DNA from: Algisphaera sp.
GTDB lineage: Bacteria; Planctomycetota; Phycisphaerae; Phycisphaerales; Phycisphaeraceae
DNA: 64,000 nucleotides
Direction of reading: 5' to 3'
Assembly (NCBI GenBank): GCA_036480015.1
Contig: JAZGFZ010000051.1
Span: forward strand, 2,319-66,318
The notes under the pieces are model-generated. The model searched no databases and was not told where the DNA came from. It worked only from the letters and a program-made list of their open reading frames with translations. The position numbers were made by a program, and so were the translations under genes. Below, piece after piece: positions 4,032 to 48,986 of this stretch (positions within the stretch are counted from its first letter, which is position 1; every line of letters begins with the position of its first letter).

Positions 4032-4664
4032 GCGGGGCCGAGGTGACGTGGCGAAATTCAAAGGTATTTTTCTGCCACTGCTCATTTTGTAAGCAGTGGA
4101 TTTGAATGGGATTAAAACGCCCTCGCAAGACGCTTGATCGCGGTGTTTTCCACGCCGCAGAAAAACGTGCCCGAACCATTGGTTGTGGGGCTTTTTCGCG
4201 AAGGGCACTTCTTGCCGCCGCATTGTCAGGGGGAATACTCTTAGTGGCGTAAGCCGCTTTCATTAGGAAGGTTATGATAATAAAAGACGTAATTCTCCGG
4301 AATTAATCTCAAAACGAGCATCGCCTTTGATCTGGCTGCCGCTAACCGAAGGCATCGCTTTACGCAACTATTCACATCTTTCCCACATTTATATTTCAGC
4401 CCGCGTCGCTCACGCGATTGCCCGCGTTTGAGAGCCTCTAATTGATTGGGCCTCTTTGGGACTTGCCTTGCGTTTTCTTAACTTTCTTAGATTTTTTTAG
4501 GCGTTCTTAGGCGTTCTAGACGTTCTTGATAAGAGCAAGCAAGGGCTTGAAGTCAAAATCCTCTGCTGTGAAACAAGGGTTGTGAAAACCGACTCACGTG
4601 TTGACACGCCTTTCATTGTGCCCAAATAGAGCCAAACCGCCCCCCCCCGGTTATAGTGCCTGCC

Positions 4665-10024: not shown

Positions 10025-10102
10025 GTCATTCCCGCCTTCGCGTATAGATTGGAGTTCCCGCCTTCGCGTACTACGTTGAGTTCCCGCCTTCGCGGGAATG
10101 AC
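10025..10102. repeat. dRS3/REP-like element with 26-bp-period half-sites
   Basis: GTCATTCCC...GGGAATGAC enclosing TTCCCGCCTTCGCG at 10029, 10055 and 10081. Confidence 0.75.
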
Positions 10103-34894: not shown

Positions 34895-35480
34895 CTCAAG
34901 ACAAACACGAAAGCTCGAAGGCGCAAAGACACGAAGAAAATTTAACCGCCAAGTTGCCAAGAATGCCAAGGAAGGCAAAGGAAGGCAAAGGAAGGCAAAG
35001 GAATCAAGGCCCAGTCACGCCAATCTCCAGCACCCCCTTTTTATCCAGTGGGATAGGCGTCCCGCCTGTCATCCGCCCGCAGGGCGGACACACATTCAAC
35101 TCCCGCGCCTCTTCATTTTCATTTGCATCTACTTGCGTTCATCCGCATCTAAAAACCATTTCTATAGCGGCCTGAACAAGACCGACCCACTCCGTTCCAC
35201 CATTCCCGCGAAGGCGGGAACTCAAATAAGTACGCGAAGGCGGGAACCCAGCTGCCCTTTGTTCAGAGATTCCCAATTTCTGAATAACCACGAAATACAC
35301 GAAATACACGAAAATCCTGCCTTGGTTTTCTTTCGTACGTTTCGTATGTTTCGTGGTAAAAAAATCGAGAACCATTTGACGTCAGGGAAGCCGTCATGCT
35401 TGTTTTTGTATGCCTATCAAAAAAAAGAGTTCCCCCGATCTATCTTTTTGTCTTCCTTGGCGTCTTGGCGTAAAACCCCT
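34895..35480. repeat. Mosaic of several short-repeat/REP families
   Basis: GAAGGCAAAG x3 (34971-35000), GTGGGATAGGCGTCCCGCCTGTC (35048-35070), CGCGAAGGCGGGAA x2 (35207, 35233), CACGAAATA arms (35288-35356). Confidence 0.75.
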
Positions 35481-38229: not shown

Positions 38230-38264
38230 TAGGCATTAGGCACTAGGCAATAGGCACTAGGCAA
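38230..38264 (+). repeat. Heptamer tandem repeat, left arm (TAGGCAH x5)
   Basis: TAGGCAT TAGGCAC TAGGCAA TAGGCAC TAGGCAA. Confidence 0.85.
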
Positions 38265-41865: not shown

Positions 41866-43377
41866 ATGGCCAAAGAAACCAAAGTCGGACTCCTCATTGG
41901 ACTTGCCTTAATCCTGCTCGTGGGGATTATCCTGTCAGATTTAGTCAAGGGCCCTCCGCCCGCCGTCGCCGTTGAAGAACAAGCCGAAGGCTTTGGAGCG
42001 CAAGCCCAAAACAACATCTACGCGCCGCCTGCGCCCCTCAAAGACCGTTCGTTTGATCGTCCCGGCGTGCTCTCTCGACCCGAGCCCTCAACGCCCAGCG
42101 CCTTTCAAACCCAACCTGCCTTTGGCCAAGACACCCCGGCATTTGAATTGCCCACCGCCCCCACCAACACTGCGGGCGAAGCCGACCGCGAGTTTGCCCC
42201 GCCGCCCCACCGGCGTCCCGACTTGCCCGAACCCGAAACCATGGAAGCCGCAGCCCCGCGTGTTGCCGAGTTACCCCAAGCATGGCGTGTGGATCGCACG
42301 GCAGCCGCCACCCCCACGACAACCACCAACGTCGCTTTTTCGCCAAACACCAGCCCCGCCCCCGACGAAACCCTTTCGGCCACCCCCGAAGACCGCTCGG
42401 TGTTTATTCCGCCGCCCGTTGCACCCACCGCCCCATCCGCCCATCACGGCTCCGATACGTTCCACCGTGTTGGCCCCCGCGACACCTTGGCCTCGGTGGC
42501 GCGCAAACATTATGGCAACGTTTCATTTGCCACAGGATTGGCCAAAGCCAACCCCGGCATGGTGGGATTTGGCGGCGTTCTACAACCCGGCGACCAACTC
42601 ACCCTCCCCAGCTTAAACAGCCCCCACTTCAGATCCAACACCCCCCTCATGGCAGACGCCGCACCAGCCGCGCCGTCCCACGACGACATCGCCCCCGAAC
42701 CCTTGCCCCGCCCACAACGTGCCGCAGGTGCCGACGCACTTAACAACACCATCAAAGTTGGAGCCGGCGACACCCTCAGCGGACTCGCCGCACGCCACTT
42801 GGGCAGCAGCCAACGGTGGGACGATCTACTCGACGCCAACCAAGACATTCTTAAACGTCCCGAAGCACTGCGTGAAGGCATGGTGCTTAAACTGCCTCAA
42901 ACGGCCGGCACGCCAGCCACCCCCAAACCAACTCAAGCCCGCCCCACCGCCGTGGCAAGCACCTCTTCACCTGCAGCGGGCAATAGCCATATCTACCGCG
43001 TGAAACCCGGCGACACCCTCTCAGGTATTGCCCGTAAAAAACTCGGCAACGCCCAGCGTTGGGACGACCTGCTTCAAGCCAACGCCGACCTACTCGACAG
43101 CCCCGAAGACCTGCGCGAAGGCATGAAGCTCACCCTTCCCAACGCCTCTGGCACGTCGGCGACAGCCCCCGCGACCACCACAACGCGACCCACCGTCATC
43201 GCCATGGCAAGCCCCACCGCCCGCACCTACACCGTTCGATCCGGCGACAACCTCACCCAAATCGCACGCCGCGAACTGGGAGACGGCCAACGGTGGGATG
43301 AAATTTTTGACGCCAATCGCGATCAAATGGACAGCCCCAGCGCCTTGCGCGAAGGCCAAACCCTACGCATGCCCTAG
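41866..43377 (+). CDS. Membrane-anchored protein with four LysM domains
   Basis: N-terminal TM, Pro-rich linker, HRVGPRDTL / KVGAGDTL / YRVKPGDTL / YTVRSGDNL repeats. Confidence 0.88.
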   Translation: MAKETKVGLLIGLALILLVGIILSDLVKGPPPAVAVEEQAEGFGAQAQNNIYAPPAPLKDRSFDRPGVLSRPEPSTPSAFQTQPAFGQDTPAFELPTAPTNTAGEADREFAPPPHRRPDLPEPETMEAAAPRVAELPQAWRVDRTAAATPTTTTNVAFSPNTSPAPDETLSATPEDRSVFIPPPVAPTAPSAHHGSDTFHRVGPRDTLASVARKHYGNVSFATGLAKANPGMVGFGGVLQPGDQLTLPSLNSPHFRSNTPLMADAAPAAPSHDDIAPEPLPRPQRAAGADALNNTIKVGAGDTLSGLAARHLGSSQRWDDLLDANQDILKRPEALREGMVLKLPQTAGTPATPKPTQARPTAVASTSSPAAGNSHIYRVKPGDTLSGIARKKLGNAQRWDDLLQANADLLDSPEDLREGMKLTLPNASGTSATAPATTTTRPTVIAMASPTARTYTVRSGDNLTQIARRELGDGQRWDEIFDANRDQMDSPSALREGQTLRMP

Positions 43378-43451: not shown

Positions 43452-43709
43452 ATGTTTCCCCGCCTAATCGCCACCACCACCGCCATTGCCTTGGTTGCCG
43501 CCAGCCTGCTCGCCCTGCGACAGCACCGGCTTCAGCTACTGCACGCCATGGGCGAACTGCACGTGCAAATGGACACCGACCGCAAGCTCACTTGGGACAC
43601 ACAATCGGCCATTGCCGAAGGCACCCACCCCGCCGCACTGCGTGACGCGGTGATTCGCGTGGGCCTCAAGCTCAAACCCGCAGACGCCCCCACCCCCGCT
43701 GCGCCGTGA
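43452..43709 (+). CDS. FtsL-like small bitopic protein
   Basis: TM followed by coiled-coil-like segment; lies immediately before the PBP with a 4-bp overlap, the usual ftsL position. Confidence 0.55.
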   Translation: MFPRLIATTTAIALVAASLLALRQHRLQLLHAMGELHVQMDTDRKLTWDTQSAIAEGTHPAALRDAVIRVGLKLKPADAPTPAAP

Positions 43710-45562
43710 GTACCTCCAGCCCCACTGAGCAGTCCAAAGTCTCCCAACGCAAAGCGGCTCGACGCAGCCGAACCGTTGAACCGCCTTCTTCACCCGACAC
43801 CAACGCCCTCACCCGAGGCCGCGATCGCGCCTTGCGCGTGGGCCGCATCACCCTCTCCATCGTCACCCTTTTTCTGGTGCTCTTACTCGCACGCGTCTTT
43901 CAACTCCAACTCCAACCGCCCGAGGCCGTGGGGGCCATGGTCGACAACCAAATTAGCCTGCGCCGCCTCGAAGCGCGCCGCGGCGCCATCGTCGATCGCC
44001 GCCACCGCGCCTTGGCCACCACCCGCGTCGCCCACCTACTCTTTGCCGACCCACACATCGTCAAAGACCCCAACACCTTCTCCGAACGCATTGGCTACCC
44101 ACTGGGTTACGAACCCGCCGCCATCGAACAACTCATGGCCAAACGTCGCGGCAGCCGCTACGTCGTCATCGACCCACACATGAGTGAAGAACGCTGGGAG
44201 AAATACCAAAACCTCGATCCCCTGCGCGGCCTGTCCACCCACCCCGTGTTGGTGCGCGACTACCCTCAAAACCACGTCGCCGGTCAATTGGTGGGCTTTG
44301 TAGGCCGTGAAAACAAAGGCCTCGACGGACTCGAACGCGCCTTGGACAAACGACTCACCGCCGACCCGGGCCAGCACGCCTTTGTTTACAACCGCAGCCG
44401 AAAACGCCTGTGGCTCGCCAACAAAAACTACCGCCTACAAGCCGATGCCCCCCCCGTCCGACTCAGCATCGACCTCAACCTGCAAGCCATCGCCGAAGAA
44501 GAAGTCTCCGCCGCCGTCATCGAATTTGGCGCCAAATCTGGCCAAGCCGTACTCATGGATCCCACCACAGGCGAAATTTTAGCCTTGGCCAACTATCCTT
44601 TTTTTGACCCCAACGACTTTTCCAAACTCAAAAAAGACAAAGCCCTCGCCCAAGCCCAACGCAACCGCGCCGCCACCGATATTTTTGAACCCGGCTCCAT
44701 CTTCAAACCCTTGGTGTGGGCCGCCGCCGTCGAAGCTGGCTACGCCGACCCCACCGAAATGATCGACTGCACTGAAAAAGGCTACTGGAAGCCCGAACGC
44801 GGCCCAGGCTTGCGCGACGCCCACCCCCACGGCCTCATCACCTGGGCCGACGTACTCAAAGTGTCTTCCAACATTGGCATGGCCGTGGTCGCCGAACGCA
44901 TGGGCAAACAACTGGTTCACGATGTGGTCAAAAGCTATGGCTTTGGCTCCACCACCCAGTCAGGCCTGCCTGGCGAAGTGGCCGGCCTGCTGCGCCCCGC
45001 CGCCAAATGGAGTTTTGCCGATGTCACCCGCGTGCCCATGGGCCAAGGCGTGGCCGTCACCGGAGTACAAATCACCCGTGCTTTTTGCGCGATTGCCAAC
45101 GACGGCATTCTTGTCAACCCCACCATCGAAGCCCGCGACCCCCAGAACAAAACCGCCCAACGACTCAACATCACCGCACGCGTGCTCAGCCCCCGCGTGG
45201 CCCAAGCCACCCGCCACGTCTTAGGCTTGGTCATCACCGAAGGCACCGGCCGCAAAGCCAGAAGCGACCTCTATCAACTGTTTGGAAAAACCGGCACCGC
45301 CCAATTACCCGATTTTAAAAACGGCGGCTACCACCAAGACCGCTACGTCTCCTCCTTTGTCGCGGGCGCCCCACTCGAACACCCCAAACTCATTGTGGGC
45401 GTTTTTGTTCACGACCCCGACAAAAAAATCGGCCACTACGGCGGCACCGTCAGCGGCCCCGCCAGCAAACGCATCCTCGAACGATCCCTGCAATACCTTG
45501 GGGTGCCCTCTGACATTGTTTCAGAAGAAGAAGAAGAAGAAGCAACTGACGGCAGCAACTAA
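43706..45562 (+). CDS. ftsI: Class B penicillin-binding protein (FtsI/PBP3-like)
   Basis: RGAIVDR, FEPGSIFK (SxxK), VSSNIG (SxN), GKTGTAQ (KTG). Confidence 0.85.
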   Translation: MSTSSPTEQSKVSQRKAARRSRTVEPPSSPDTNALTRGRDRALRVGRITLSIVTLFLVLLLARVFQLQLQPPEAVGAMVDNQISLRRLEARRGAIVDRRHRALATTRVAHLLFADPHIVKDPNTFSERIGYPLGYEPAAIEQLMAKRRGSRYVVIDPHMSEERWEKYQNLDPLRGLSTHPVLVRDYPQNHVAGQLVGFVGRENKGLDGLERALDKRLTADPGQHAFVYNRSRKRLWLANKNYRLQADAPPVRLSIDLNLQAIAEEEVSAAVIEFGAKSGQAVLMDPTTGEILALANYPFFDPNDFSKLKKDKALAQAQRNRAATDIFEPGSIFKPLVWAAAVEAGYADPTEMIDCTEKGYWKPERGPGLRDAHPHGLITWADVLKVSSNIGMAVVAERMGKQLVHDVVKSYGFGSTTQSGLPGEVAGLLRPAAKWSFADVTRVPMGQGVAVTGVQITRAFCAIANDGILVNPTIEARDPQNKTAQRLNITARVLSPRVAQATRHVLGLVITEGTGRKARSDLYQLFGKTGTAQLPDFKNGGYHQDRYVSSFVAGAPLEHPKLIVGVFVHDPDKKIGHYGGTVSGPASKRILERSLQYLGVPSDIVSEEEEEEATDGSN

Positions 45563-45804
45563 AGAACAGCCCTGAAATAACATCCCTAATTCAGGCCCCC
45601 TCAAAGCCAGCGGTGTCATCTCCGGCCAACTCTCCACGTCAATCCCCGCGCAGGCGGGGATCCAGCTGTGCGAGCCTAAATTTCCGCCTACGCGTACAAA
45701 TCTGGGTTCCCGCCTACGCGGGAATGACGGAGGGCGGCGTCGGCCATGACGGGCAAAAAGGCGTGAACGGTGACAAAAAAGGGATGTTATTTCAGGACTG
45801 TTCC
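45563..45804. mobile_element. MITE-like element, 24-bp imperfect TIRs, TAA flanks
   Basis: AGAACAGCCCTGAAATAACATCCC / GGGATGTTATTTCAGGACTGTTCC (22/24); TAA at 45560-45562 and 45805-45807. Confidence 0.7.
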
Positions 45805-45862
45805 TAAATGCCTCCGCCTTGGCGTAACCATCCCAACACGCCCCCACCACCACAACTTATTC

Positions 45863-46600
45863 TCAATCGCCACGTCGAAAAACAGCAATGCCTCGCCTGC
45901 GACGAACTTCCCAAACGGCCGTCACCTCGATACCCAAATCTTGCGCAATGGCCGCATCCGTTTCACGCCCCAGACGAGCAATCACTTCAGGCGTCCAACG
46001 TTCGGCCAGAATGACACCCCGAAACGAAGGAATGCCTCGGCTGCGCCGTTCGGTACCCAACGTTCGGCGTGTCACCTGCAGCTTGGCGGCCAATTCACGA
46101 TCCGGCATCGTGCCCATCAATGCAATTTCGCGCGGCTTCCACACCCGACCACGCGCGCCACGGCCAGGGTTTGCAGCCGCGATACCAAGGGTCACACGCT
46201 TGTCATGTACCGTCGTGTTCGCAAGGCCCAGCTTCCCCGCAAGCTTCGCATCAGACACAACACCCAATTTTTTCAACTGAGCCGCCGTCCAACGATGAGA
46301 CACCGTCTTACCCGATAGGCCACACGCAATGCCCAGCTTTTCCCGACGCTTCACAACCGTATTGCGCGACACACCCCACTTGCGAGCCAATTCAGGATCA
46401 GGGATTTTGCCCAACTTGGCGTCACGCAATTTACTCCAACGCACACGCTTGACAGGAGCACTAAACGCCGCAATTCCAAGCTTTCGACGACGCGTTGAAA
46501 CATTCCACGCAACCACCCCCAATCGCTCCGCCACTTCACGATCCGAAGCCTTCCCCAACCGCCGATCCATCGCCACAGTCCATTTAATCGTTGTTCCCAT
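45863..46600 (-). CDS. Five-repeat HTH-like basic protein, paralog 1
   Basis: Five copies of W-x7-LG-x3-D-x2-LA-x2-LG-x6-V-x3-R-x2-LGI. Confidence 0.75.
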   Translation of the reverse strand: MGTTIKWTVAMDRRLGKASDREVAERLGVVAWNVSTRRRKLGIAAFSAPVKRVRWSKLRDAKLGKIPDPELARKWGVSRNTVVKRREKLGIACGLSGKTVSHRWTAAQLKKLGVVSDAKLAGKLGLANTTVHDKRVTLGIAAANPGRGARGRVWKPREIALMGTMPDRELAAKLQVTRRTLGTERRSRGIPSFRGVILAERWTPEVIARLGRETDAAIAQDLGIEVTAVWEVRRRRGIAVFRRGD

Positions 46601-46785
46601 CCATAAAGCGTACCTACTTTAAAGTGGATCAGCCCATTGCGCACCCCAAAAAAAGCCACTTGTAAACGGCCACCGCTTTGTCATCGCTTCATTTCAAGGC
46701 GACGCGTTCTGCTCGCTTGCGAACCCCAGTGCAGCATCAAGCCTAAATCCTCAGGCAAATTGCGACGGGACACGCCCCCCCTGTC

Positions 46786-47523
46786 TCAATTGCCGTATCC
46801 AAAAGCAGCAATGCCCCGATTGCGGCGAACCTCCCAAACCACCGTCATGTCGATCCCCAAATCAAGCGCAATGGCCGCGTCCGTCTCACGTCCCAGACGC
46901 GCGATCACTTTAGGCGTCCAACGTTTGGTCTGAATCGCACCACGAAACGAAGGAATGCCTCGGCTGCGCCGTTCGTTACCCAGCGTTCGGCGTGTCACCT
47001 TCAGCTTGGCTGCCAATTCACGATCCGGCATCGTGCCCAAAAGTGCAATTTCGCGAGCCTTCCACACCCGACCACGCCCCCCGCGATTGGGATTTGCAAC
47101 CGCAATGCCAAGCGTCACACGCTTGTCATGCACTGTGGTGTTCGCAAGGCCCAGCTTGCCAGCAAGCTTCACATCAGACACAACACCCAGCTTTTTTAAC
47201 TGCGCCGCCGTCCAGCGATAAGGTGGCGTTTTGCCCGACTCGCCACACGCAATACCCAGTTTTTCACGACGTCGACGCACCGCATTACGCGACACACCCC
47301 ACTTGCGAGCCAATTCAGGATCAGGGATTTTGCCCAACTTGGCGTCACGCAATTTGCTCCAACGCACACGCTTGGCAGGAGTACTAAACGCCGCAATTCC
47401 AAGCTTTCGACGACGCGTCGACACATTCCACACCGCCACCCCCAAACGTTCCCCCACTTCACGATCCGAAGCCTTCCCCAGCCGTCGATCCATCGCCGCA
47501 GTCCATTTAATCGTTGTTCCCAT
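46786..47523 (-). CDS. Five-repeat HTH-like basic protein, paralog 2
   Basis: Colinear close paralog of 45863-46600; start set at MGTTIKW. Confidence 0.75.
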   Translation of the reverse strand: MGTTIKWTAAMDRRLGKASDREVGERLGVAVWNVSTRRRKLGIAAFSTPAKRVRWSKLRDAKLGKIPDPELARKWGVSRNAVRRRREKLGIACGESGKTPPYRWTAAQLKKLGVVSDVKLAGKLGLANTTVHDKRVTLGIAVANPNRGGRGRVWKAREIALLGTMPDRELAAKLKVTRRTLGNERRSRGIPSFRGAIQTKRWTPKVIARLGRETDAAIALDLGIDMTVVWEVRRNRGIAAFGYGN

Positions 47524-47588
47524 CCACAAAGGGTACTCTTTTCTAGAACAACGCCTCATCCCTTCCTCTATACCCTAACAAAAAAACC

Positions 47589-48986
47589 ATGACCTTCTGG
47601 CCCCTGCTTCTCGAAATCGCCCTCATCGGAGGCTATGTTCTCGCAGGGCTGGGGCTCATCGACATGCTGCGTCATCGGCGCAGCCCAGGCAGCACCATGG
47701 CGTGGCTCATTGTGTTCATCGGCCTGCCTTACCTTGGAACGGGTGCCTACCTGTTTTTTGGCCGCCGAAAGTCATCCACCCTGCGCACACAGCGCATACG
47801 CCCTGCGCCATGCACCAATCACAACACCCATGACACCTCGCCAATTGGTTTTGCACGCGTCCTCACCCACTACGGCGCCAACTCACCCACCACACAAAAC
47901 CACGTGTCTTTGTGCCGCGACGGCCAACAAGGTCTCGCCACCCTGCTCGCACTCATCGACGGCGCCAAACACCGCCTCTGGCTCGAAACCTTTATCTTTG
48001 CCGACGACCCCACAGGCCAAACTGTTCGTGACCACCTTGCCGCCCGCGCCGCCGCAGGCGTCGACGTTCGGGTGCTCATCGACGGACTGGGTTCGTTCAA
48101 AACAAGCACCCTCTTTTTCACACCACTTATCGAAGCCGGCGGCCATCTGGCCACCTTCAAACCCGTACTCACTCTGCCGTTTCACCTCAAAACCAATCTA
48201 CGCAACCACCGCAAACTGGTGGTGGCCGACGGCGTGCACTCCTTCGCAGGCGGCATGAACATCACCCACGCAGACCTGTTCTCCGCAACCACCGCCAACA
48301 CATGGCAAGACGTATCACTGCACATCAAGGGGCCCGCCGCCGCAGACCTTGAAGCCACCTTCATTCGCGACTGGCAATACGCCACCGGCGACACTCTAAG
48401 CACCACACCCTGCGAAACCCACACGCCTGCTGCTTCGCCTGATGTCAGCAACCAAGTTGTGCAACTACTCACCACCGGCCCCGACACCGCCAACGATCCC
48501 CTTTACGCCGCCAGCCTCACCGCCATTCATCGCGCCACCGATCGCATTTGGCTTACCACCCCCTACTTTGTACCCAACGAAGCCCTCGCCGACGCACTCA
48601 CCTTCGCCGCCCACCGGGGCGTCGATGTACGCATCCTCATCCCACGCCGATCCAACCACCCGCTCACCGACTTCGCAGGCGCCGCATTGCTACGCGACAT
48701 CCACAAAGCTGGCGCCCGCGTGCTGCGTTACCGCCCCGGCATGATGCACGCCAAAACCATGCTCATCGACCACACCTTTGCCGCCGTGGGTTCAGCCAAC
48801 TTCGATTACCGAAGCTTGTTTTTAAACTACGAACTCATGCAGTTTTGTTACGACCCACTCACCCTCGACTCCCTCGCCGATTGGTTCACCCAACTGTCAC
48901 AACAATGCGACGACGACCTGCCCAATCCAAGCCTCATCCGCCAACTCGCCGAAGGCGTCGTCCGTGCCATCGCCCCCATGTTTTAG
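47589..48986 (+). CDS. cls: Cardiolipin synthase-like phospholipase D
   Basis: Two TMs, RNHRKLVVAD and MHAKTMLID HKD motifs, GSANFDYRS. Confidence 0.88.
   Translation: MTFWPLLLEIALIGGYVLAGLGLIDMLRHRRSPGSTMAWLIVFIGLPYLGTGAYLFFGRRKSSTLRTQRIRPAPCTNHNTHDTSPIGFARVLTHYGANSPTTQNHVSLCRDGQQGLATLLALIDGAKHRLWLETFIFADDPTGQTVRDHLAARAAAGVDVRVLIDGLGSFKTSTLFFTPLIEAGGHLATFKPVLTLPFHLKTNLRNHRKLVVADGVHSFAGGMNITHADLFSATTANTWQDVSLHIKGPAAADLEATFIRDWQYATGDTLSTTPCETHTPAASPDVSNQVVQLLTTGPDTANDPLYAASLTAIHRATDRIWLTTPYFVPNEALADALTFAAHRGVDVRILIPRRSNHPLTDFAGAALLRDIHKAGARVLRYRPGMMHAKTMLIDHTFAAVGSANFDYRSLFLNYELMQFCYDPLTLDSLADWFTQLSQQCDDDLPNPSLIRQLAEGVVRAIAPMF

Follow-up and report, generated by a model that had tools for sequence, protein, structure and literature searches.

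What is the role of two neighbouring repeat proteins encoded at the end of a planctomycete cell-division gene cluster? The question is raised by genes A and B, which lie side by side in a stretch of 64,000 nucleotides from an Algisphaera sp. contig (JAZGFZ010000051.1; hereafter the window). Each encodes a protein with five repeat units of helix-turn-helix (HTH) type. We consider it probable that the two proteins are nuclease-free arrays of five independently folded HTH units that read a long DNA site and act by occupying it. Below we present the proteins, the large family to which they belong, and its nuclease-fused members, and weigh this reading against alternatives.

Two paralogous proteins with five repeat units

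A preliminary description of this DNA reported two adjacent, very basic proteins of about 245 residues, without an enzyme domain or transmembrane segment. We confirm this. Both open reading frames (ORFs) are present (Table 1) and encode 245 residues each, with an isoelectric point (pI) of 11.7, 54-55 Lys and Arg residues against 20-22 Asp and Glu, and a net charge of about +33. An ENA contig carries a call of the exact gene A protein. No enzyme domain was identified in A or B by Pfam, NCBIfam or PADLOC, no anti-phage defence match for A was found in PADLOC, and neither protein has a hydrophobic stretch (maximum 19-residue Kyte-Doolittle means of 0.65 and 1.04). The proteins align without gaps (86% amino-acid identity, 86.7% nucleotide identity). 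The duplication covers the coding sequence together with 2 nt past the stop codon and 13 nt before the ATG. The copies are offset by 923 nt, and a DNA repeat (D2) pairs 46356-46613 with 47279-47536. Gene B has an alternative start 12 codons earlier, at 47559; the DNA similarity to A stops 13 nt upstream of 47523. The unique spacer between the copies carries a terminator-like hairpin on the minus strand (46654-46671), followed by a T run, just upstream of gene A.

In each protein the 37-residue units start at W7, W55, W104, W154 and W202 and are joined by linkers of 11-13 residues, and they show the motif previously given for them. We scored the units with a hidden Markov model (HMM) built solely from the units of other proteins, with the window excluded. 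All 10 units of A and B reached 34.5-52.2 bits (38-50 bits in gene A), whereas the best score in 400 shuffled copies was 7.2 bits. Pairwise identity between units within A and B is 30-46%. The variable segments given in the preliminary description are confirmed, as is the difference between the paralogs in four of the five.

Each unit is predicted to be a three-helix HTH module

The proposal that each unit is an HTH module is upheld by profile searches and modelling, which predict a three-helix HTH module for every unit of A and B. Pfam matches of protein A include HTH_AsnC-type (40.8 bits; cut-off 27), HTH_23 (31.8; 24.6), HTH_11 (25.0; 25) and Phage_CI_repr (23.7; 22), and those of B are similar. 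The only domain kinds that Pfam finds in A and B are of the HTH clan, and NCBIfam and PADLOC contribute nothing further. AlphaFold2, run with the family alignment, gives a model with a predicted local distance difference test (pLDDT) of 81.6 and three helices in each of the five units; in a single-unit model the helices span residues 7-13, 18-25 and 29-39. Gly22, located in the turn, is kept in 73% of family units.

A phmmer search of the whole protein against the PDB returned nothing useful. A profile of 49 units identified the RpoN-box domain of sigma-54 (PDB 2o8k; E=0.0027) as the best solved sequence match of the unit. The alignment spans helix 2, the turn and helix 3 (unit 2, VSRNTVVKRREKLGIA, against VARRTVAKYREMLGIP) and includes the pattern ..D.E.A......V.R.TV.K.R..LGIP; 2ahq and 5ui5 are further structures of this domain. 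The RpoN-box helix reads the -24 promoter element. Unlike the array units, the RpoN box occurs as a single copy within a sigma factor, A and B lack core-binding or activator-responsive regions, and the E-value is marginal. Membership in the sigma-54 (RpoN) family was rejected, as a HTH segment of roughly 32 residues alone aligns and there are no Sigma54 Pfam domains.

Could the units bind protein or RNA instead of DNA? A and B would then be a scaffold for RNA polymerase or other factors, in the manner of SANT domains, sigma region 4 or the winged helices of SelB. Weak matches to Sigma70_r4, the sigma-70 extracytoplasmic function (ECF) family and GcrA are in line with this idea, as are SelB-RNA structures among the weak Foldseek matches and the RNA polymerase alpha C-terminal domain (alpha-CTD) carried by one relative, P0117. 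We regard it as improbable. The nuclease fusions described below point to DNA, and the RpoN box, which gives the best sequence match, is a DNA-reading helix; the strong basic charge fits nucleic acid and does not separate DNA from RNA. Membership in GcrA (PF07750) was also rejected (E=0.53; 11.1 bits, cut-off 26.9).

A large family of HTH arrays

A word-index protein search detected gene A homologues down to E=1e-42. With 11 relatives in total, it first suggested a rare family. This view was overturned by a full HMMER scan of 1.84 billion representatives, which retrieved 10,513 at E<=1e-3 and 1,074 at E<=1e-30. Of the representatives, the top 150 were covered in detail, and unit counts were taken from 159 sequences. 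In the latter, the number of units per protein ranges from 3 to 19 (mostly 6-8), and the majority have no other domain. Unit starts are spaced 44-50 residues apart (mode 48).

The family unit has the consensus WTPEELALLGTMPDAELARRLGVSPSTVRRKRRRLGI, with conserved positions W1 (76%), L9, G10, D14, A18, G22, V28, R32 (98%), L35, G36 and I37. Across 1173 family units the most variable positions are 25, 26, 30 and 29, then 33 and 34, a pattern (i, i+1, i+4, i+5, i+8, i+9) that corresponds to one face of helix 3. Pro (18%) and Arg (13%) are abundant in the family linkers, most of which start with PP, PA or PS, and the family median net charge is +0.085 per residue. Mean unit identity is 36% within proteins and 35% between proteins. 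Units of one protein are therefore no more alike than units of different proteins, indicating that the arrays are old, diverged and not homogenised. The family alignment lacks any conserved stretch of 7-10 columns.

We found no Pfam or NCBIfam model specific for the unit, and a literature search on tandem, repeated or multi-HTH arrays recovered no description of this family. Among the matches listed, public names are 'hypothetical', except for one automatic 'CsgD family' label. Hosts include Thermoanaerobaculia, a Candidatus Acidoferrum metagenome-assembled genome and Pseudomonas guariconensis, and a locus search with the single protein gave one Acidobacteriota locus. The homologues share no conserved gene context, and their surroundings often look mobile or defence-related, for example a primase with an XRE regulator, AbiEii with a kinase, or an island with integrase, HEPN, HNH and DnaB genes. 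The Pseudomonas guariconensis protein (L009:8001-10805) has 934 residues with 19 consecutive units, and is encoded in an island with integrase, HEPN, HNH_2, phospholipase D (PLD)-like, DnaB-like and shufflon-type genes.

Relatives with nuclease domains and phage links

Some relatives combine the array with other domains. In P0108 the partner is an HNH nuclease domain. A GIY-YIG domain is present in P0111, where its 24.1 bits exceed the cut-off, and in P0011 (18.8 bits), and P0142 has four helicase-associated (HA) domains. In a phage collection, tblastn matches were confined to Vibrio phage proteins with the annotation GIY-YIG nuclease or homing endonuclease; these consist of an N-terminal GIY-YIG domain followed by 3-5 array units. 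In two of these phages (L007:2225-3368 and L008:2225-5487) the genes adjoin a terminase large-subunit gene whose annotation is split into several fragments. Such a location is typical of homing endonucleases and looks like the insertion of one into the terminase. No NUMOD family was identified in A or B (Pfam, E<=10) or in the phage GIY-YIG proteins (E<=1). Since the GIY-YIG proteins carry the unit and the NUMOD models miss it, the unit appears to be a nuclease-associated DNA-binding module that is not separately catalogued. The fusion of the same array to GIY-YIG and HNH nucleases argues for site-specific DNA recognition.

Searching the viral structure library BFVD with the whole model gave 30 matches at E<=1e-3, including phage endonucleases, transposases, transcriptional regulators and a 'D5 protein' (E=3.2e-6). 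The best match is a protein of 333 residues, a length equal to that of a Vibrio phage GIY-YIG protein. Protein A also matches phrog_323 ('transcriptional regulator, D5-like') at 5.9e-14, with two units aligned over positions 110-208 of the 319 in the profile. Phage T5 D5 is the type member of this family (1.2e-71, full length); its record describes it as binding DNA and as being required in replication and late transcription. Like A and B, D5 is about 250 residues long and has several HTH-like units; unlike theirs, its units are longer and less regular, and by inspection it is not markedly basic. We regard T5 D5 as a remote relative of the array family. The D5 protein itself (L052:17311-18078, 255 residues) has about four HTH-like units (e.g. 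SPWTPEQEAELVDFL...) and Pfam matches to Sigma70_r4_2, HTH_23 and, weakly, Myb.

These phage links bear on a second alternative, namely that A and B are architectural binders of double-stranded DNA with low or no specificity (nucleoid-associated proteins that coat DNA cooperatively), as reported for T5 D5. The high pI and charge, the phrog_323 match, the D5 protein among the BFVD matches and the failure to find a target motif would all agree with such a role. However, the fusion partners of the same array include homing-type nucleases, and these depend on selecting a site. Moreover, the units diverge within proteins as much as between them and vary on the helix-3 face, the pattern expected of distinct sub-site specificities. 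On balance, we think a purely architectural role unlikely.

Both copies are under purifying selection

Substitution rates between A and B, estimated by the Nei-Gojobori method, are 0.36 at synonymous sites (dS) and 0.084 at nonsynonymous sites (dN), giving a dN/dS ratio (omega) of 0.23 overall. Within units omega is 0.15, in linkers and termini 0.57, and in the variable segment (unit positions 23-30) 0.21. These values show that A and B are maintained by purifying selection. Amino-acid differences between the copies are enriched in the linkers (17/60 versus 18/185, p=0.001); enrichment was not significant in the variable segment (9/40, p=0.14) or on the helix-3 face (6/30, p=0.08). The preliminary description had viewed the recognition helix as diversifying between the paralogs. 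We reject diversifying or positive selection on the variable segment, given its omega and the fact that the linkers are the fastest-evolving part. The changes in helix 3 (V29R and K30R in unit 2, T30N in unit 4, R34N in unit 5) leave some drift in specificity between A and B possible.

The selection data also speak to a third alternative, in which A and B are decaying remnants of homing endonuclease genes that have lost the nuclease and have no present function. Relatives do carry GIY-YIG or HNH domains, and the genes adjoin a transposable element at a break in synteny (see below). We nonetheless consider decay very improbable. Both copies are intact, full-length and gap-free, with the low omega given above at a dS of 0.36, and nuclease-free arrays form the large majority among the top 150 family members. 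In addition, the locus was found in four independent sequencing runs, of DNA or of unspecified type, largely at >=99% identity.

Proposed mode of action

Because the array is the DNA-targeting part of homing nucleases in some relatives, A and B very likely bind long stretches of DNA. By the same token, the stand-alone form most likely occupies DNA. We therefore return to the reading of A and B as site-reading arrays without a nuclease, for which we infer DNA binding, a geometry of one unit per sub-site and a regulatory role. The protein would lie along double-stranded DNA with helix 3 of each unit in the major groove; the basic charge, the nuclease fusions and the likeness to the RpoN box favour such binding indirectly. 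The stretch in contact with DNA would be unit positions 24-34, combining the invariant Arg32 with variable residues at 25, 26, 29, 30, 33 and 34, and the basic, Pro/Arg-rich linkers could follow the backbone or the minor groove. Jointly, the five modules may recognise a single extended, asymmetric composite site that spans some tens of base pairs. Without a nuclease, action would consist of DNA occupancy, as a repressor or other regulator, or as a site-occluding or architectural factor. The arrays presumably originate from the accessory (mobile-element) gene pool. Thus, A and B are probably DNA-binding regulators of accessory origin at the end of a cell-division gene cluster.

Several observations weigh against this proposal. 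No candidate target site or motif for A or B was found, and a search for a sigma-70-like promoter upstream found none. The HTH matches are generic, and a family-specific model is absent. Of the structural checks suggested in the preliminary description, AlphaFold gives an HTH-like fold; Foldseek against the PDB yields no significant E-value for either the whole model or the 48-residue unit (unit E>=0.7), its top matches being nearly all HTH DNA binders (Tc3 transposase, FapR, Fis, LuxR-type, AsnC/Lrp, homeodomains and MarR). The predicted template modelling score (pTM) of the whole model is only 0.36, so that the relative arrangement of the units is not defined and the model resembles beads on a string. 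Direct comparison of T5 D5 with A is weak (E=0.0015-0.009; hhalign E=0.0015, probability 17%). Finally, three-helix units of this type are also able to contact proteins, for example in SANT domains and sigma region 4.

A stronger form of the idea is that the arrays are the bacterial and phage counterpart of polydactyl zinc fingers, each 48-residue unit reading a short sub-site via positions 25/26/29/30/33/34. A and B would then be natural programmable site-occluders that, for example, protect or regulate particular loci or repeat elements. We put this forward as a speculative and rather unlikely extension.

Comparison with known multi-module DNA readers

Homing endonucleases such as I-TevI and I-BmoI have DNA-binding regions (NUMOD-type) in which small modules, including HTHs, on flexible linkers read a long asymmetric site (PMC1564403). 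The array unit resembles these in occurring 3-5 times behind GIY-YIG in the Vibrio phages and together with HNH in P0108. In contrast, A and B have no nuclease domain, and their arrays are homogeneous, with one unit type instead of mixed modules. NUMOD membership was rejected, as Pfam NUMOD1/3/4 are unmatched and the linkage to a nuclease is seen at the family level only.

Tandem arrays of diverged, independent modules of ~30-50 residues, each contacting one sub-site, are also seen in Myb R1R2R3, in C2H2 zinc fingers and in the multi-HTH tail of TnsD (PMC10293859). The array family differs from all three in having as many as 19 consecutive units and no other domain. The unit shares with Myb its size of about 48 residues and its three-helix build. 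It lacks the triple-Trp core of Myb, however, and the Cys/His ligands of zinc fingers. We rejected Myb/SANT membership, and with it the earlier 'Myb-like' label in its strict sense: the only conserved Trp is at position 1 (76%), and Myb_DNA-binding is not among the Pfam matches at E<=10.

The preliminary description also compared the proteins to transcription activator-like effectors (TALEs), with which they share a repeat build and a proposed modular reading of DNA. In TALEs the repeats are almost identical, have 33-35 residues and two helices, and use one hypervariable di-residue to read one base, whereas the units of A and B are 30-46% identical, have three helices and show variability spread over a helix face, with no single hypervariable di-residue. 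TALE-like membership was rejected on these grounds. What survives of the modular-reader proposal is an array of diverged HTH modules with nuclease-fused relatives; the TALE-like architecture does not. On this evidence the array stands nearer to those of zinc-finger, Myb or NUMOD type than to TALEs.

Genomic setting

The pair lies between ftsI (43706-45562, plus strand) and a cardiolipin-synthase-like PLD gene (cls; 47589-48986, plus strand). The closest relative found (FtsI 80% identical) keeps the order LysM protein-ftsL-ftsI, and has neither arrays nor cls within 6 kb after ftsI. The unit is also absent from all other genes in the window and from 41 ftsI loci. The A/B pair is therefore lineage-specific cargo at a synteny break. 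The earlier view of an insertion between ftsI and cls agrees with the lack of arrays in this relative and is weakened by the lack of cls there as well.

The miniature inverted-repeat transposable element (MITE) noted beside the genes is real. In addition to its terminal inverted repeats (Table 1), it is flanked by a 5-bp direct duplication, CTAAA (45559-45563 and 45804-45808), and its insertion point coincides with the ftsI stop codon. Four metagenome runs cover its core (45636-45803) 20-35x more deeply than the flanks, which identifies a high-copy element.

Table 1. Coordinates of the array genes, their repeat units and adjacent elements in the window.
Feature	Position	Strand	Basis or remark
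Gene A	45863..46600	-	ORF; 245-residue protein, five HTH units, linkers of 11-13 residues
A unit 1, residues 7-43	46472..46582	-	Helices 9-14, 20-27, 31-41 (AlphaFold)
A unit 2, residues 55-91	46328..46438	-	VSRNTVVKRREKLGIA resembles RpoN box VARRTVAKYREMLGIP
A unit 3, residues 104-140	46181..46291	-	Unit HMM, AlphaFold
A unit 4, residues 154-190	46031..46141	-	Unit HMM, AlphaFold
A unit 5, residues 202-238	45887..45997	-	Unit HMM, AlphaFold
Gene B, paralogue of A	46786..47523	-	ORF; 245 residues
B units 1-5	47395-47505, 47251-47361, 47104-47214, 46954-47064, 46810-46920 (46810..47505 overall)	-	In register with A
Unique spacer between A and B copies	46614..46783		170 bp
MITE	45564..45803		240 bp, 24-bp terminal inverted repeats, directly 3' of gene A

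A 14-nt motif, TTCCCGCCTNCGCG, recurs with a 26-bp period at 10029-10094, 35207-35246 (minus strand) and 45681-45724 (9 matches versus 0.8 expected). At 10.1 kb and 45.7 kb the copies extend alike (GGGAATGAC...GTCGGCCATGNCGGG.AAAAA..GTGAACGG), and this similarity beyond the motif makes the MITE core part of a dispersed repeat family. Its translation yields familiar spurious ORFs of the 'WIPACAGI / PAYAGMT' type. Arrays found in the window by Tandem Repeats Finder (TRF) are short and heterogeneous. Short tandem arrays with a period of 7-14 bp and 2.5-5 copies occur at 4497-4527, 30699-30733, 32841-32874, 34968-35003 and 38230-38264 (e.g. AAGGAAGGCA x3.6 and TAGGCAC x4.9); their units are mutually unrelated, and no link to the array proteins is apparent.

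The cell-division cluster includes a gene (41866-43377) for a Pro/Ala/Thr-rich protein of 503 residues with three LysM domains and a Phage_tail_X-like match, sitting just upstream of an ftsL-like gene and ftsI. The window resembles planctomycete DNA, and a DUF1559 protein with a prepilin-like N-terminus is encoded 1.6 kb away. The plus strand of the window (1-64000) is strongly C-rich: the GC skew, near -0.05 on the left, declines to roughly -0.25, a level reached at 40 kb and kept thereafter; the skew holds for genes of either orientation and is much above the usual replication skew.

Implications

DNA readers with several HTH modules are already known, as in Myb, the TnsD tail, the binding domains of homing endonucleases and T5 D5. 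The novelty here lies in a very large, unnamed family without a dedicated model, comprising more than 10,000 clusters at 50% identity, in which one compact HTH unit is repeated 3-19 times, usually with nothing else. For this genome, the annotation of two 'hypothetical proteins' can be improved to probable DNA-binding regulators. If the units read their sub-sites independently, the family would offer a new natural scaffold for long-site recognition, and also a route to explain the target choice of some GIY-YIG and HNH homing nucleases. The nuclease-fused members are built-in protein-target pairs for deriving recognition rules. Should the analogy with zinc fingers be correct, the code could be learned from those members whose homing sites can be inferred, and arrays of 3-19 units could specify sites of arbitrary length.

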